A DNA stretch of 64,000 bases from Escherichia phage FL12, in sequence record PP400786, one strand, 5' to 3'. Within the stretch, counting starts at the first letter, position 1. Every line of letters begins with the position of its first letter. Positions 1,400 through 11,798 of the stretch are shown in pieces. Below the pieces are notes generated by a model that saw only the letters and a list, made by a program, of their open reading frames with translations, was not told where the DNA came from and ran no database searches. The position numbers and the translations under genes were made by a program.

Positions 1400-2987
<1,588 letters not shown>

Positions 2988-3014
2988 AATAAAATGGGCC
3001 TTGCGGCCCACTCC

Positions 3015-3516
3015 TTAAAAGTATTTTTTAAAACTCATCATAACTTTATCATCAACATCATTATCAATCTGTGCAACAAGGTAAGATGACAGTTCTACTT
3101 CTTGTGGCGCGGATTGAACATTATCAGAATTAAGATATTCACGAATCCAAGGATACGGATGTTTAACCGGAGCATCGGTAATTGGGCATGGAAGACCACA
3201 CTGTTTCATACGAGATACAGTTAAGTAATCAATAAAGCTCCACATGCTATTTGTATTTAATCCAGGAACATCACCATCTTTAAATAAATGAACTGCCCAA
3301 TCTTTTTCTTGGCGGTTAACTTCCATGAAAATATCAACTGCTTCTTGTTCACACTCTTGAGCAATTTTAACCCATTCATCACCATCAGTGCCGGATTGAA
3401 GTTGACGAATAATATATTGAGTGCCTTTAAGATGAAGCTGCTCATCACGAGCAATGAACTTCATAATCTTGGCATTACCTTCCATGATTTCCATGTTCTT
3501 ATGGAAGTTAAAGGTA
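3015..3516 (-). CDS. nrdB: ribonucleotide reductase beta subunit, exon 2
   Basis: ...TFNFHKNMEIMEGNAKIMKFIARDEQLHL... is the conserved R2 region that follows ...FYVSFAC; splice acceptor inferred. Confidence 0.7.
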
Positions 3517-4107
3517 CCGTTATGTTCGATTGAGCTCGCTAATTCTCAACCCGTTCTCTTATGAACTGCTACATATTACTATGCAGACCAGACTATATCA
3601 CAATCCCAGAGGGATTCTCCCCATTTCGAGTCGCTTGACCCTACGTCCGAAGACTAGTCGTTGAACCTTGCTTTGCAATTGTCGCCGTGCCATCGTTTAT
3701 ATGTTGATGGTGATAAATCTTTCTTATCACAATATGGACAATTCAATTGAATTCTATTTGGATTTAATTTACATCTGTCATTATGTTTTAGATAAAATCC
3801 AGGACCTTTACCAATGTGCCCGCAGAAATCACATGTGATTTCTTTTTGTGCAGGATGGGTCCCGTTCTTAACCATTTCTAATGTTTTTGCTGATGTTCTT
3901 TTCTTATGGTCCCATCAGAATCTTTAAGTAGGTCCGTCAGCATCTATCCAAATTTTTCTATAGTTCAATTGTGCATCCTCTTAAAAGTATAATCATATTA
4001 TACTAATTAAAGGTGCAAGCAAAACCTTGGCTGCTAGTTTTCCTATAAAGGACTTTCCAGCAATTAAAGGAGTTTTCGATAAACGTTACCGTTTAAAGGC
4101 GCATTTT
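3517..4107 (-). mobile_element. group I intron in nrdB (about 591 nt)
   Basis: Exon 1 frame stops right after ...FYVSFA; exon 2 resumes about 590 nt downstream; inferred junction GCGU|GUACC gives ...VSFACTFNF...; intron ends in G. Confidence 0.6.
3654..3875 (-). CDS. degenerate intron endonuclease ORF (I-TevIII-like, zinc finger)
   Basis: 73-aa ORF inside the intron with CDFCGH...CPYCDKK zinc-finger motifs; too short for a full HNH enzyme. Confidence 0.5.
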   Translation of the reverse strand: MVKNGTHPAQKEITCDFCGHIGKGPGFYLKHNDRCKLNPNRIQLNCPYCDKKDLSPSTYKRWHGDNCKARFND

Positions 4108-4783
4108 ACGCAAAAGATACATAAAAACGAATAGCTTCTAAGGCATTAATAACGTGCAAACAGAGGTAAAGAGATTTCATTAAAGCACGTTTAGCTTCGG
4201 CTTCTTGTTTAATAGCTCGGTTTAAACGAAAGTCGGCATCAGGAGATTCTTTAGCTAGTTCTACAAATTCTTTAGCATTTTCCCATTCACGGGTTTTAAC
4301 CAAGACATCATCATAATAACGTCCAATGGATTCAGCTCGTTTCATAATAGCTTCATCTAATACAATCTCATCAAATACCTTTGACGGATCAGTATAAAGA
4401 TTTCGCATGATATGAGTATATGAACGACTGTGAATAGTTTCACTAAAAGTCCATGTAGCAACCCATGTATCTAATGAAGGATCTGAAAGCAATGGCATAA
4501 GTACCGCAGATGGTGCACGACCTTGAATGCTATCAAGTAACGATTGATATTTAAGATTATTAGTAAAAATATTTTGTTGATACTGAGGAAGTTTATTAAA
4601 TTGAGTAGCATCCATCATCAAGTTAACTTCTTCAGGACGCCAGAAAAACGAGAGCTGACGTTCAATAAGTTCTTCAAATACCCTATGTCGTTGAATATCA
4701 TAACGTGCAATTCCAAGACCAGACCCAAAAAACATGGGTTCTGTTAAAACATCGACCTGTTTAGTATTAAAAACTGTACTCAT
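4108..4783 (-). CDS. nrdB: ribonucleotide reductase beta subunit, exon 1
   Basis: MSTVFNTKQVDVL... ending ...ALEAIRFYVSFA, the conserved R2 radical-site region. Confidence 0.8.
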
Positions 4784-6375
4784 TATTTTGTCCTGTAAAC
4801 TAAATTTCCACAGTCCCAGATTCTTCTAAGACCATTTGCATAACAATTTTCTACTTCAGTTATTGTATCATCATAATTTTTAAGCTTGTTTTTAAGCTTA
4901 TGTTTCATATAGCTTGAGCGGTGAAATACCTCTCCTTTATCGACGTACCAATAACACGGCTCAGAGATATGACTAAATTCCATGACAGAGTCATAAACAT
5001 TTGATAATGTACTGCACCATCTTCGATTGCCATAAGATAGACAATTAATTCCTTTTAATAATTTTGAGACTCCTCCTACAACACAAACCCCCAATTTTGA
5101 ACACATCCTTAAAAGTTCATCACCTGAGCTATATCTAGATTTACCGATAGAAATAATTTGAACTAACTCATTATTGTAATAAAGTCCTTTATACGTATGA
5201 GCTCCCGAGCAAAATCCTTGAAGATGATTCTTATTAATAAATTCTTTTGCCTCATCCTTATTAACAAAACGCGCTTTGCATTTTCGGGCTGGTATTCTTT
5301 CTGATAATCCTAATTTATGCTTTATAATGGATTTCCAGATCTCTCTTTTTGTATCATCAATCCATTCATTTTCGAAGATGTGAAGTAATTGAATTCCTTG
5401 TGCTTCACACATCTCTGTCTTCATCAAATGATAAGTTTCTTTAATTTTATCTGTTTCCTTTGACCCGCTAGAATGCCAATAAATTCCATCGTATTCTATA
5501 GCCAATTTTTTCTCAGGAATGTAAATATCTAATTCATACGGAGGAATAATTTTTCTAGTTTCTACGCAATCAAATCCTAGATCTAAAATGAATTGCTCTA
5601 TAGAACTTTGAGTATAATGAACGTCAATTAGTCCTTTGGATGAAAGAGCTCTATAAGCCGTCATCCGAGAACAATTTGCTAATTGTTGTAGTTCTTCTAT
5701 AGAAATTTTGTAATTGATTTTATCTAGTATATCATGATTAATATGACCGTTATTTTTAATAGATTTTCCTATAGATGAATATAACGATGCCTTATATTCT
5801 TCAGTCCAATTTAATTTGGTCTTCTTAGATTTTTCGCGAGATTTTTTAGAATGCAGAATATCAACTGATTTACCGTTTTCTATAACTTTTCTCGCTTCTT
5901 TCACACTTTCTAATTGTGAATTATGCGTTACCCCATATCGTTCAATTAAAGTTTTTCTATTTTTATTTCTTGAAATTTTTTGATGAGTTGTTCCATATTT
6001 TTCTAAAGAATTTTTGTGTTGAAGTTCAGACAAATATTTTTTATATTTTTCTTTTCCACCAAAATTTGTATCACGGCTTTGAGTTCTCTTATCCGCGAAA
6101 AATATCCCTGCGCAGGATTTACTACATGTTGCTGGAAATACACGTTTCTTTGCTGTTTTCAGAGAAATGAAATTTCCACAAACTGCACATTTTAGATCGT
6201 TAATGTCAATGCCTTCCATAATTTGGAACACATTGAGCTTAAAATCTATTCCATCAGTTAGAAGAGCTTTATCTTCTTCTGTTAGTCTAGATTTAAGTTT
6301 TTCTTCTCCAAATGGAAGAAACTTTCCGTTTTTGTATATATTATCAAACATAGCGTTATTCTTAGTTAACCACAT
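4783..6375 (-). CDS. large nuclease-like protein of unknown type (zinc ribbon, basic repeats, Vsr/DUF559-like motif)
   Basis: 530-aa ORF between nrdA and nrdB; CAVCGNF...CSKSCAG; repeated KYGTTHQ / RYGVTHNSQ; ...LAIEYDGIYWHS...GIQLLHIFENEW. Confidence 0.55.
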   Translation of the reverse strand: MWLTKNNAMFDNIYKNGKFLPFGEEKLKSRLTEEDKALLTDGIDFKLNVFQIMEGIDINDLKCAVCGNFISLKTAKKRVFPATCSKSCAGIFFADKRTQSRDTNFGGKEKYKKYLSELQHKNSLEKYGTTHQKISRNKNRKTLIERYGVTHNSQLESVKEARKVIENGKSVDILHSKKSREKSKKTKLNWTEEYKASLYSSIGKSIKNNGHINHDILDKINYKISIEELQQLANCSRMTAYRALSSKGLIDVHYTQSSIEQFILDLGFDCVETRKIIPPYELDIYIPEKKLAIEYDGIYWHSSGSKETDKIKETYHLMKTEMCEAQGIQLLHIFENEWIDDTKREIWKSIIKHKLGLSERIPARKCKARFVNKDEAKEFINKNHLQGFCSGAHTYKGLYYNNELVQIISIGKSRYSSGDELLRMCSKLGVCVVGGVSKLLKGINCLSYGNRRWCSTLSNVYDSVMEFSHISEPCYWYVDKGEVFHRSSYMKHKLKNKLKNYDDTITEVENCYANGLRRIWDCGNLVYRTK

Positions 6376-6391
6376 CCTTGTGGTAATTATA

Positions 6392-7381
6392 TCATAATTT
6401 ACAGGATGAACAATCTTCAGCTTTTGGAGTTTCTATTTCATAATCATCAGTACCAGAACCATCACGGGTATTATGATAATAGAAATTTTTAATGCCATAA
6501 TACCATCCGTATAGCATGTCATCAATCATTATTGACATTGGAACCTTTCCTTTTGGAAAAATCTGCGGGTCATAATATGTATTCGCTGAAGCTGATTGAC
6601 ATACCCATTTCAGCATAATAGCTACCTGCGTAAGATAAGGTTTATTACCTTTCTTAGCTAATTTCCATGTATAGTCGTAAAGGTCTATGTTATGCTCAAT
6701 ATTGGGCACGACTTGATTAAAGGAGCCCTCTTTTGATTCTTTAACAGAGACTGGTCCACGTGGAGGCTCGATACCGTTTGTACTGTTAGAAACTTGGGAA
6801 GATGACTCACATGGCATAAGTGCTGATAATGTGCTATTACGGATGCCAAAGAGCTTAAGGTCTTCCCGCAGCGCCGACCAATCACAAACGTATTTTGGAG
6901 CTGCGATTTGGTCAATCTTTTTATTGTACCAGTCGATAGGTAATTCGCCTCGAGACCAACGAGTGTCTGAATAATATTCGCAAGGTCCTTTTTCTTTGGC
7001 GAGCTTAATGGATGCTTTAATGAGTCCATACTGTAATCTCTCAAATAGTTCATGTGTTAAATCGTTAGCATCTTCATAAGAAGCAAAGTTACTTGCCAGC
7101 CAAGCTGCATAGTTGGTAACACCTACACCAAGATTTCGACGCTTTTTAGCTTTTTCTGCTTCAGGAACTGGATATCCTTGGTAATCCAAAAGATTATCAA
7201 GAGCACGAACTTGAACTTCTGCCAATTCATTAATTTTATCTTGGTCTTGCCAGTCAAAATTATCCAGTACGAATGCGCTAAGGGTACAAAGCCCCACTTC
7301 TCCCTTGTTTTCAATAACTTCTATTGTAGTATACTCATCATCTTCGTAAAATTCATCTACAAATTCATAATCAATATTCAT
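6392..7381 (-). CDS. nrdA: ribonucleotide reductase alpha subunit, C-terminal fragment
   Basis: ...GLCTLSAF...LSALMPCESSSQ...NTRDGSG...CSSCKL, matching the C-terminal third of class Ia R1. Confidence 0.85.
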   Translation of the reverse strand: MNIDYEFVDEFYEDDEYTTIEVIENKGEVGLCTLSAFVLDNFDWQDQDKINELAEVQVRALDNLLDYQGYPVPEAEKAKKRRNLGVGVTNYAAWLASNFASYEDANDLTHELFERLQYGLIKASIKLAKEKGPCEYYSDTRWSRGELPIDWYNKKIDQIAAPKYVCDWSALREDLKLFGIRNSTLSALMPCESSSQVSNSTNGIEPPRGPVSVKESKEGSFNQVVPNIEHNIDLYDYTWKLAKKGNKPYLTQVAIMLKWVCQSASANTYYDPQIFPKGKVPMSIMIDDMLYGWYYGIKNFYYHNTRDGSGTDDYEIETPKAEDCSSCKL

Positions 7382-8081
7382 TTAATTCTTTTACCTTTTT
7401 TCTAGTAATTCCTAAAGCTTTAGATGCTCGATGTATTGATTGATATTCTATACCGTTTATTTTTACAGCAATTAAGTTATGGGGTTTTAATCCCTTTGGA
7501 TGAGGTTTACTGACGAAAACTAAATTATCAAGCTCTGAAATCTTATCCAATTTCTTACACTTAAATCCTTTGTGATGCGACCGTTTACCTTTACAAACGG
7601 CTGACATTGCAGATGGATTTAAATTATGCTCTTTACAAAATTCGTTAAGACCTCGATGAATTTCCTCATGACCATCAGGAAATGTAAACACCCAAGATGT
7701 TTGAAGTCGAGATTTAACTTCTGGAGACATAGGAATACCTTTGTTCCAAGCTGGTTTGCCTTTATTATTTTCAGATACAGAAATAGCCAATTTTCTTCTA
7801 AGCCACCCATGGCGTTTATTGGTGTTCTTTCGTTCAATATTATCTTTAGAATAAACACACATCATATTAGCGGCAAATATCAATTTATGATTATTTGGAT
7901 ATATCTTTACTAATAATTGATGAGCTATGTAATGCTCTTCTGGCGTCAAATCTACCAGGTTTTCCTTTGTATCAGAACCACCAATACACAGAGGTATAAT
8001 ATGGTGTGATTCGGTATAGCAATCTAATTTTCTATTCTTAGCTTTAGAAATAAGGTTATTGTAAATTTTAAAATAATCCAT
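7371..8081 (-). CDS. HNH homing endonuclease inserted within nrdA
   Basis: 236-aa ORF with ESHHIIPLCIGGSDTKENLVDLTPEEHYIAH motif; stop overlaps the start region of the downstream nrdA fragment. Confidence 0.8.
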   Translation of the reverse strand: MDYFKIYNNLISKAKNRKLDCYTESHHIIPLCIGGSDTKENLVDLTPEEHYIAHQLLVKIYPNNHKLIFAANMMCVYSKDNIERKNTNKRHGWLRRKLAISVSENNKGKPAWNKGIPMSPEVKSRLQTSWVFTFPDGHEEIHRGLNEFCKEHNLNPSAMSAVCKGKRSHHKGFKCKKLDKISELDNLVFVSKPHPKGLKPHNLIAVKINGIEYQSIHRASKALGITRKKVKELNEY

Positions 8082-8126
8082 AACTTTTCCTCTTGTTATG
8101 GATTATTTATTAACGGTCTGTGTACT

Positions 8127-9560
8127 TTATTTGCTTTGAATTATACCGTCAGGATTAGCTTCATAAAACTTAGCTACATCCGACTTCTTAATTTTGATTA
8201 AACGGGTTTGTTGGCTATTCACATCATTTGTTGGAATAGCAATTTCACAACACAAGTTACTCTGACGAATAGGCGCCTTTTCGCGAATAAACGGAGTGTA
8301 GTTATTCGTATTATCAATGAACTGTACATAAATCCTTGCTGTTCCTGAACGTTCAGTCATGAGCAATTCAAATAGTTCACGGGCTTTAATACGCTTTTTA
8401 CGAATATTAGGGTCTTTTTCTGCTGCTTCGTATAATTCACGGAAACGGTCTTGGTCTTTAAAATAAGAATAATAAAGCTCGCCACCCATTTCATGTGGAC
8501 TGAACAAAGTAATGTAATCGTTCTTTCCAAAACGTTCCATCATCAAATCATTCAGCTGAACACCATAATCCATATGACGAATGCGGTTTTCTTCTACGCC
8601 TTTGTTATTTTTCAAAACGAGAAGATTTTCAACTTCCAAATGCCAAATAGGATAATAAGCAGTAGCAGCGCCGCCACGAATTCCACCCTGTGAACATGAT
8701 TTAACTGCAGTCTGAAAATGTTTCCAAAAAGGAATAACACCAGTATGGCGTACTTCACCCATGCCAATCTTAGAACCTTCGGCACGAATCATACCAACGT
8801 TAATACCAATTCCAGCGCGTTTAGAGATATATTCAACAATTGAAGCGGAAGCCTTATTGATAGACTTCAATGAATCTCCTGCCTCAATAACAACACATGA
8901 ACTAAACTGTCGAGTAGGAGTACGACAACCAGCCATAATAGGAGTTGGCAGTGAAATTTGTCGGGTTGATACTGCTTCATAAAAACGAATAACGTGTTTT
9001 AGTCTATCAACAGGTTCATCTTGATGCAGTGCCATTCCAATAGTCATAAATGCAAACTGTGGAGTTTCATAAATTTGACCAGTGGTTTTATCTTTAACTA
9101 GATATTTTTCTTTTAATTGCATCGCCCCGGAATAAGTAAATTCCATATCCCGCTCATGCTTAATTTTTGATTCTAAAAATGTAATTTCTTCTGCTGAATA
9201 TTTTGACAATAATTCAGGGTCGTATTTACCTTCATTTACACAGTAAGAAATATGGTCAATAAATGAACGTGGTTCATACTGCCCATAAACATGCTTACGA
9301 AGAGCGAACATTAGACAACGTGCAGCTACATATTGATAATCAGGCTCTTCAACCGAAATAGAATTCGCAGCGGCCTTAATGACAATAGTCTGAATATCAT
9401 CAGTTGTCATTCCATCACGGAGATAAGATTTAATATTTTCATATAATTCATAAGGATCTACTGATGTTCCTTCAGCTGCCCAAGATAAAACTTTAATAAT
9501 TTTTTGTGGGTCAAAGCTCTGAGAAACACCACTACTTTTGATAACATTAATTAATTGCAT
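8127..9560 (-). CDS. nrdA: ribonucleotide reductase alpha subunit, N-terminal fragment
   Basis: ATP-cone N-terminus; ...MAGCRTPTRQFSSCVVIE... and ...SNLCCEIAIPTNDVN then 26 non-conserved residues and stop. Confidence 0.85.
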   Translation of the reverse strand: MQLINVIKSSGVSQSFDPQKIIKVLSWAAEGTSVDPYELYENIKSYLRDGMTTDDIQTIVIKAAANSISVEEPDYQYVAARCLMFALRKHVYGQYEPRSFIDHISYCVNEGKYDPELLSKYSAEEITFLESKIKHERDMEFTYSGAMQLKEKYLVKDKTTGQIYETPQFAFMTIGMALHQDEPVDRLKHVIRFYEAVSTRQISLPTPIMAGCRTPTRQFSSCVVIEAGDSLKSINKASASIVEYISKRAGIGINVGMIRAEGSKIGMGEVRHTGVIPFWKHFQTAVKSCSQGGIRGGAATAYYPIWHLEVENLLVLKNNKGVEENRIRHMDYGVQLNDLMMERFGKNDYITLFSPHEMGGELYYSYFKDQDRFRELYEAAEKDPNIRKKRIKARELFELLMTERSGTARIYVQFIDNTNNYTPFIREKAPIRQSNLCCEIAIPTNDVNSQQTRLIKIKKSDVAKFYEANPDGIIQSK

Positions 9561-9877
9561 AAGTCCTCAACTTGAAAATCGTCTTTAAACAATCGGTTAA
9601 CTATATGAGCTATTATATCACCATGACACGGCTTTGGTTTACATGTGCATCCTAGCCTCATTCCACGTAAAGGCTCTAAATGTGCTTTAGTTATTTCTCC
9701 GGATTTAATTCGACGTATAAAATCTTTTTTGAATAATTCAATGGCAGCCTCCCGGCTGCCAGCATCTTTACCGACGTAATTTCCCCAAAATGTACCACGG
9801 TGAATATTAACATCAAAGTCGGATTTATATTTATTCACTACCCGACATAGACGGCCCACGCTGGAATAATTCGTCAT
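9551..9877 (-). CDS. hypothetical Cys/His-motif protein
   Basis: 108-aa ORF with [15 protein letters not shown]; stop overlaps nrdA start. Confidence 0.5.
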
Positions 9878-10106
9878 ATTGTTTTTCCGTTAAAACAGTA
9901 ATATCGTAGTAACAGTCAGAAGAAGTTTTAACTGTGGAAATTTTATTATCAAAATACTCACGAGTCATTTTATGAGTATAGTATTTTTTACCATAAATGG
10001 TAATAGGCTGTTCTGGTCCTGGAACTTCTAACTCGCTTGGGTTAGGAAGTGTAAAAAGAACTACGCCAGAAGTATCTTTAAATCGTAAAATCATATATCC
10101 TCGCAA
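9831..10106 (-). CDS. hypothetical protein
   Basis: 91-aa ORF between td and nrdA; start may be an internal Met. Confidence 0.4.
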
Positions 10107-10114
10107 TAATAAAA

Positions 10115-11798
<1,684 letters not shown>

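Follow-up and report, generated by a model that had tools for sequence, protein, structure and literature searches.

The gene between nrdA and nrdB of Escherichia phage FL12 is very probably hef, with a predicted Mom-family domain behind its Vsr-like nuclease

A 64,000-nucleotide (nt) stretch of Escherichia phage FL12 (PP400786), referred to here as the window, carries on its minus strand a single unbroken open reading frame (ORF) of 530 codons at 4783-6375, between a C-terminal fragment of nrdA and nrdB. This ORF is very probably hef, a free-standing gene for a homing endonuclease that was originally discovered in the T-even phage U5, and as such it is already known. The under-appreciated point concerns the C-terminal third of its product, which appears to be a conserved relative of the DNA-modifying enzyme Mom and follows a nuclease of the Vsr-like type.

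The protein has a five-part layout, consisting of a zinc ribbon, Lys/Arg-rich KYG repeats, a helical segment resembling a helix-turn-helix (HTH), a Vsr-like nuclease and a Mom-family GNAT domain. An AlphaFold2 model of the full-length protein is confident throughout (predicted local distance difference test score, pLDDT, 93.6). The gene and the segments of its product are listed below, with amino acid (aa) numbering that refers to the 530-aa form.

4783..6375, minus strand: hef ORF, 530 aa plus stop (ORF list, megablast, U5 annotation, PHROG 3339)
6196..6375, minus strand: aa 1-60, small N-terminal domain with a beta-hairpin and short helices (AlphaFold2 secondary structure, pLDDT >90 beyond residue 10)
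6091..6195, minus strand: aa 61-95, zinc-ribbon-like Cys cluster CxxC...CxxxC formed by C63, C66, C84 and C88 (conservation, weak Pfam matches)
5746..6090, minus strand: aa 96-210, K/R-rich helical region with the KYG...YGV tandem motif, DUF7487 (Pfam, charge, BFVD)
5614..5745, minus strand: aa 211-254, helical, weakly HTH-like linker domain (sub-threshold HTH_11, AlphaFold2 helices at 214-246)
5302..5613, minus strand: aa 255-358, predicted Vsr-like / EDxHD nuclease with E260, E281, D283, E294, D296, H301, D309 and H316, K319, T320 (3R3P, Pfam, conservation, BFVD)
4786..5301, minus strand: aa 359-530, predicted Mom-family GNAT-fold domain with H384, E420, R423, S437, N450, R452, Y461 and R486 (Foldseek, Pfam in relatives, profile-profile comparison)

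Identity of the gene as hef

When 50,697 phage records were searched by megablast, 16 T4-like (Tequatrovirus) records matched the whole ORF at 99.1-99.7% identity. Among them is phage U5 (AY262133.2), where the matching gene is labelled "hef: Hef, homing endonuclease" and is sited between nrdA and nrdB. The two genes share 99.6% DNA identity over 1593 nt, and their products differ at 4 of 530 residues (A89S, T98I, S417T, V436A), leaving the conserved catalytic positions untouched. PHROG 3339 ("homing endonuclease") covers the FL12 protein end to end (E 2e-150), and a protein search returned >2,100 homologues, several of which are named Hef-like homing endonuclease.

The gene is tightly packed between its neighbours. 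Its ATG follows the C-terminal piece of nrdA (6392-7381), 16 nt past the stop codon of that piece, its TAA shares bases with the nrdB ATG (ATAATG), and its G+C content of ~30-32% is slightly under that of the flanking nrd genes. U5 Hef (ABI48935.1) is alike in sequence, in its position between nrdA and nrdB, and in a stop that overlaps the nrdB start; it differs in being annotated at 544 aa, and FL12 additionally has an nrdA split by an HNH gene. No second copy of hef occurs within the 64-kb window. The initial annotation of this DNA, made from the letters alone, had described an uninterrupted 530-aa ORF in the slot that T4 fills with mobE. Both statements are borne out, the strand being added here; phage RB3, too, has mobE at the same nrdA-nrdB site.

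The difference in annotated length reflects the choice of start codon. In U5 and in many copies in the databases, the annotated start is an ATG lying 14 codons upstream. This codon reads AAG in the window, and therefore the 530-aa form must be the product made here, which suggests that the 530-aa start is functional in all hef-bearing phages of this set. The base change that removes the 544-aa start (used in U5 and in database cluster P0001; window 6376-6420, minus strand) also changes the nrdA codon that overlaps it.

The description of hef in phage U5 goes back to Sandegren, Nord and Sjoberg in 2005 (Nucleic Acids Res 33:6203). A review citing Sandegren et al. 2005 has Hef replacing mobE and cleaving nrdB (PMC2988022). 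In a Campylobacter phage paper, Hef is credited with endonuclease activity, is called unlike any homing endonuclease then known, and is said to cut near its own locus (PMC3322345). According to these two papers, U5 Hef reportedly acts site-specifically on nrdB and is inherited preferentially when infections are mixed. Hef is also reported to cut the DNA of its own phage as well as that of phages without the gene.

Domain architecture of Hef

In a Foldseek search of the PDB with the full-length model, phage Mu Mom (8BV8) ranks first (E 8.6e-6) and is followed by ordinary GNAT acetyltransferases; aa 359-530 thus has a predicted GNAT fold with Mom as its nearest structure. Modelled in isolation, this domain is again confident (pLDDT 94.4). 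The Pfam family PF25680 ("Mom protein family") matches 15 of 56 Hef relatives exactly at the C-terminal domain, six of these at or above the gathering score (27.3-32.2 bits, the threshold being 27.1). An hhalign comparison of the Hef family profile with a 28-member Mom alignment gave E 6e-5 over 131 columns, and the comparison with a single Mom sequence was weak (E 0.02). Several results weigh against the assignment: the FL12 protein itself matches neither PF25680, even at E up to 10, nor any NCBIfam model, the isolated C-terminal domain finds nothing meaningful in Pfam or NCBIfam, and pairwise BLASTP of Hef with Mu Mom is not significant. On balance, profiles and models together identify aa 359-530 as a predicted Mom-family GNAT domain, a well-conserved relative of phage Mu Mom. 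The C-terminal region that the initial annotation had recognised but could not place is thereby given a family. Mom itself is a standalone, dimeric, 241-aa, tRNA-dependent GNAT enzyme that modifies adenine at N6, whereas the Hef domain follows a nuclease in the same chain.

This fusion recurs in a large family. An exhaustive phmmer search with the Mom-like domain alone yielded 12,811 cluster representatives at E <=1e-3 and 7,028 at <=1e-10. Among the best 150 of the 12,811, the domain nearly always forms the C-terminal 170 residues of a protein of 450-800 aa, and the layout of nuclease plus C-terminal domain recurs throughout. Counted from D283, the distance to the C-terminus differs little among members (median 249 aa, range 220-266). 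The N-terminal part is variable both in its length and in the modules it contains (DUF7487, DUF723, treble-clef and other zinc ribbons), and a few members, of ~300 aa, consist of the core alone. A uniform core with a variable N-terminus indicates that the conserved unit is the nuclease plus the Mom-like domain (~250 aa), to which swappable DNA-binding heads are joined; judged from sequence, such heads on a fixed core would be expected of modular homing endonucleases. In about nine relatives the Mom-like signature is retained and the nuclease is degenerate, missing or differently placed (e.g. P0243, P0252, P0267, P0318, P0339, P0346, P0358); in P0346 the Mom-like domain occupies residues 106-275 of 614.

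The recurrence of this architecture also bears on whether the ORF could be a fusion artefact of two genes, which the initial annotation had raised, or a decaying pseudogene. Apart from the unusual length, nothing speaks for either, and against them stand the intact ORF in 16 phage records, the uniform core length of the relatives and the confident full-length model. We consider them scarcely credible, and a fusion artefact is ruled out by the shared intact ORF and the recurring layout.

The nuclease occupies the centre of the protein. Within aa 258-351, Pfam matches were obtained to MTES_1575 (E 1.5e-5 on the isolated segment), DUF559 (1.7e-3) and Vsr (0.14), all of them restriction-endonuclease-like families; the same families match 32, 3 and 4 of 56 relatives, respectively. 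The sole meaningful match among all PDB sequences is 3R3P, the nuclease domain of I-Bth0305I (E 0.029 with the single sequence, 8.7e-4 with the family profile). These alignments pair Hef D283 and H301 with the two residues mutated in the crystal construct (D196A and H213A), and D296 with N208. Residues D283, H301, H316, K319 and T320 are invariant in the 56 relatives, E281 and E294 are each present in 55, and position 296 is only ever N or D. In a more diverse set of 135 cluster representatives (28-55% identical to the query), D283, position 296 and H301 are kept in 126, 121 and 125, and the D283/E294/H301 triad is intact in 123.

Structural searches gave a mixed picture. Searched by fold against BFVD, the full-length model matched proteins annotated as "DNA mismatch endonuclease", "DUF559" and "Csr/MutH/archaeal HJR family nuclease" (E 1e-4 to 2e-6). 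Foldseek against the PDB gave no nuclease structure among the 50 matches listed, GNAT matches being dominant, and for this reason the support for the nuclease fold comes from the BFVD matches and the sequence profiles. Three points count against a simple assignment. All the nuclease matches in Pfam are under their gathering thresholds. The first E of the EDxHD motif (E170 in I-Bth0305I) is displaced, as the family residues E256/E258 are Q256/S258 here and E260 lies one helical turn on. The last D (D222 in I-Bth0305I) has a counterpart in D309, present here and in 39 of 56 relatives, that is 2 residues off in the HMMER alignment. The canonical D...(D/E)-x-K signature is also not found: the FL12 protein has D283...E294-Y-D296, where most relatives carry N at 296; the K position holds no Lys, and a His (H301) is present as it is in Vsr. 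From these motifs the fold is predicted to lie within the restriction-endonuclease-like / PD-(D/E)xK superfamily, with a Vsr-type active site of acidic residues and His. The resemblance to Vsr and DUF559 noted in the initial annotation therefore holds, and of the PD-(D/E)xK comparison that it proposed the superfamily fold stands, the canonical signature does not.

In a Pfam scan at E up to 1, the protein matched no GIY-YIG, HNH or LAGLIDADG family, in agreement with the earlier description of the first two motifs as lacking; the same scan detected HNH in the neighbouring ORF at 7371-8081 and GIY-YIG in that at 2577-3011. Taylor et al. (2011) built the Vsr-like "EDxHD" family on I-Bth0305I and included in it "bacteriophage Hef type homing endonucleases" (PMC3239194). 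I-Bth0305I has a homologous nuclease domain and, as is presumed for Hef, modular N-terminal DNA-binding repeats, and it is an intron-encoded protein of 266 aa that ends at the nuclease domain. Hef in contrast is free-standing, carries a zinc ribbon, DUF7487 repeats and an extra Mom-like domain of 172 aa, and has the first E of the motif displaced.

The initial annotation had suggested a new type of mobile endonuclease. A mobile (homing) endonuclease it is, in all probability; that it represents a previously undescribed type is highly improbable. The lack of GIY-YIG, HNH and LAGLIDADG and the unusual size and architecture would suit such a type. As to size, 530 residues are ~2.2 times the 243-aa MobE of RB3, not the more than threefold excess over typical free-standing enzymes that had been claimed. 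Novelty is rejected because the U5 record already annotates hef, to which the ORF is nearly identical, and because the EDxHD family assignment dates from 2011; hef has also been treated in reviews and genome papers.

The remaining segments lie N-terminal to the nuclease. No family match to aa 1-60 was found in Pfam scans. The Cys cluster, already apparent in the initial annotation, is kept in 50-53 of 56 homologues (C63/C66/C84/C88) and gives a weak match to Zn_ribbon_TFIIB (E 0.21), and relatives match treble-clef and zinc-ribbon families of Pfam. The Lys/Arg-rich tandem repeat that had likewise been noted is found at aa 96-210, with a net charge of +17. DUF7487 matches aa 93-160 weakly in the FL12 protein (E 0.005) and strongly in 30 of 56 relatives (best 4.8e-30). 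One BFVD match of this region is to a NUMOD3 protein (E 1.2e-4), and no NUMOD family of Pfam matches the FL12 protein directly. The KYG repeats are presumed to be DNA-binding repeats. HTH_11 is matched below threshold at aa 222-244 (E 0.05-0.13).

Cassette boundaries, distribution and neighbouring mobile genes

The limits of the hef cassette were set by comparing the window with RB3. Homology to RB3 stops at window position 6396, 4 nt ahead of the nrdA stop, and restarts at 4794, 11 nt ahead of the nrdB ATG; between these two positions the genomes have no DNA similarity. The flanks are as follows.

6392..7381, minus strand: nrdA C-terminal fragment, upstream flank, RB3 homology ending at 6396 (ORF list, RB3 comparison)
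3912..4794, minus strand: nrdB exon 1 and start of the intron, downstream flank, 91% identity (RB3 comparison)

The downstream flank, which is the first 880 base pairs (bp) beyond the cassette, is 91% identical to RB3, compared with 98-99% on both sides. As far as sequence can tell, such a tract is what one would expect next to a homing cassette whose flank has been co-converted or is polymorphic at the target. MobE of T4/RB3 uses the identical slot and also has nrdB as its target, and yet it is unrelated to Hef in sequence and catalytic fold, being an HNH protein (243 aa in RB3).

The distribution of hef is patchy. It is found in 16 phage records only, compared with 822 that match the neighbouring nrdA and 959 that match nrdB, a spread typical of a selfish element. 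Moreover, hef and mobE alternate at a single site, the nrdA-nrdB gap, and phage genome papers report multiple free-standing Hef-like genes per genome (PMC3296691). These marks of selfishness bear on the suggestion, also made in the initial annotation, that the nuclease was recruited for another role, for example regulation of the nrd operon or degradation of host DNA. In favour of such domestication, hef is placed in line within the unit formed by nrdA and nrdB, its stop codon shares bases with the start of nrdB, and scans for promoters and terminators, together with a search for T4 late promoters, gave no signal near it exceeding chance. Given the patchy presence, the alternation with mobE and the multi-copy relatives, a role other than mobility was rejected, and we regard it as very unlikely.

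The surroundings of hef are rich in other mobile genes. The nrdA gene is in two pieces, an N-terminal part at 8127-9560 and the C-terminal part at 6392-7381 (minus strand), between which lies the HNH ORF (7371-8081). This ORF encodes 236 aa with HNH and I-HmuI-NUMOD-like endonuclease features, and its ends overlap both nrdA fragments. The break is placed just past the conserved SNLCCEI active-site stretch. This split arrangement is common to ~32 phage records, e.g. Yersinia phage fPS-2 and vB_EcoM_112, and is reminiscent of Aeromonas phage Aeh1, in which nrdA is split by mobE (PMC3045599). The nrdB gene (3015-4783, minus strand) is interrupted too, as in the group I intron case of T4, U5 and RB3, and a scan at Rfam gathering thresholds reported no group I intron at 3015-4783. 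Of I-TevIII a remnant of 73 aa is left as its intron ORF (3654-3875), 493 bp being deleted in comparison with RB3. Some 6 kb of this nucleotide-metabolism cluster (window 2577-11553) thus pack the HNH gene in nrdA, hef, the nrdB intron with its defective I-TevIII, and the GIY-YIG gene denA (2577-3011). The td gene (10115-10975) is uninterrupted here; in the hef-positive phage N2 it has an intron with I-TevI.

Homing and the possible role of the Mom-like domain

Homing by Hef might proceed as follows. In a mixed infection, the N-terminal modules (zinc ribbon, KYG repeats and HTH-like segment) would bind the DNA of a phage lacking hef, at a site within or close to nrdB. There the target would be cut by the Vsr-type active site (D283, E294, H301), which would be metal-dependent. 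Repair by recombination with the hef-bearing genome would then put hef, together with nrdA and nrdB markers on its flanks, where mobE had been. Since it keeps the residues that line the active-site pocket of Mom, the Mom-like domain in all likelihood contacts a base flipped out of the target DNA, probably adenine.

Mom is a Gly-tRNA-dependent adenine modification enzyme whose chemistry was solved in 2026; mutagenesis has shown that R111, S124 and R151 are essential and that H58 and Y159 are important (PMC13219725). The Hef counterparts are R423, S437, R452, H384 and Y461, respectively. Conservation of these positions is nearly universal: H384, E420, R423, Y461, R486, D521 and G523 are invariant in 135 of 135 diverse cluster representatives, R452 is retained in 126 and S437 in 120. 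Other key positions have changed, which weighs against a fully Mom-like site. The invariant D149 of Mom is N450 in Hef, in a column that holds only N (86 of 135) or D (49), and Y59, W181 and the dimerisation residue W48 of Mom are replaced by L385, V483 (V or L in the family) and D374. The (D/N)PPY motif of N6-adenine methyltransferases accepts either residue while contacting the target amino group. By analogy, alternation of D and N at position 450 would be compatible with an active base-binding pocket.

These residues can be read in two ways. In the first, Hef is a single-chain element resembling a restriction-modification system, in which the Mom-like domain modifies adenine at Hef's own sites and the nuclease cuts unmodified DNA of a co-infecting phage or of the host. 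This would extend homing rather than exclude it. It is suggested by the nearly universal retention of the residues essential or important in Mom and by the strict N or D at position 450, and a precedent exists in the group 2 jumbo phages. In these, Iyer, Anantharaman, Krishnan, Burroughs and Aravind (2021) described fusions of Mom with a restriction endonuclease (Mom-REase) and proposed that momylation shields the phage DNA and the nuclease attacks host or competitor DNA (PMC7824862), the same logic as that considered here. If Hef can indeed cut the DNA of its own phage in vitro, as is reported, the phage would need to protect itself in vivo. Against it, D149 is N in Hef and in 64% of relatives, the Y59, W181 and W48 equivalents are lost, and a donor (Gly-tRNA, acyl-CoA or other) is not inferable from sequence. 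We know of no modified base at Hef sites. On this evidence adenine modification by Hef seems unlikely, though well within consideration.

In the second, the Mom-like domain is catalytically silent and serves as a module for DNA reading, base flipping, positioning or oligomerisation, which gives the nuclease its specificity or its geometry of double-strand cutting. This is consistent with the replacement of D149 by N and the lost Y59/W181 equivalents, with a domain that always lies directly C-terminal to the nuclease at a fixed distance, with its basic character (net charge +11), and with the proposal that the pocket and insertion of Mom are DNA-binding surfaces (PMC13219725). It accords poorly with the invariance, at 28-55% identity, of a catalytic-type set of Ser, Arg, His and Tyr, which goes beyond the usual need of simple DNA binding, and with the roughly nine relatives whose nuclease is decayed or absent, which suggest an autonomous function. 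A silent domain is a serious possibility, if somewhat short of an even one, and roles other than these two take up the probability that is left.

The precedent of the jumbo phages is close. Iyer et al. (2021) counted five momylating enzymes for phage PA5oct (PMC7824862). A protein of the Mom-REase type from this phage carries the label "putative homing endonuclease" and is structurally related to the FL12 ORF over the full length (BFVD, E 5e-28). From this we infer that the Mom-REase fusions and Hef belong to the same family, which links the literature on homing by Hef with that on Mom-REase fusions. The domain pairing is the same in both, whereas Iyer et al. interpreted the fusions as conflict systems resembling restriction-modification and mention neither homing nor Hef. 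No paper joining Mom or GNAT with Hef, Vsr or homing was found in an incomplete search of the literature that included two Mom mechanism papers.

As a gene call, the result is modest: the ORF should be labelled hef, a free-standing homing endonuclease of the Vsr-like/EDxHD type, and little else changes. For the two fields concerned it has more to offer. In the homing field Hef is known as a Vsr-like endonuclease and its last 170 residues have drawn no comment, and in the field of DNA modification fusions of Mom with nucleases are known, but it has gone unnoticed that one of them belongs to a homing gene whose mobility has reportedly been shown by experiment. That Hef-like homing endonucleases in general are single-chain "cut and mark" elements, with a Mom-type domain active on adenine at their own target site, is a tentative and on present evidence doubtful idea. 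If true, the genome that carries the gene would be immune to a nuclease otherwise able to cut it; homing endonucleases would be joined to the logic of restriction-modification, and Mom-type hypermodification would be extended to site-specific use. With the chemistry of Mom solved and two tractable phages in U5 and T4, what this strongly conserved Mom-like domain does is directly testable, for a family of thousands.

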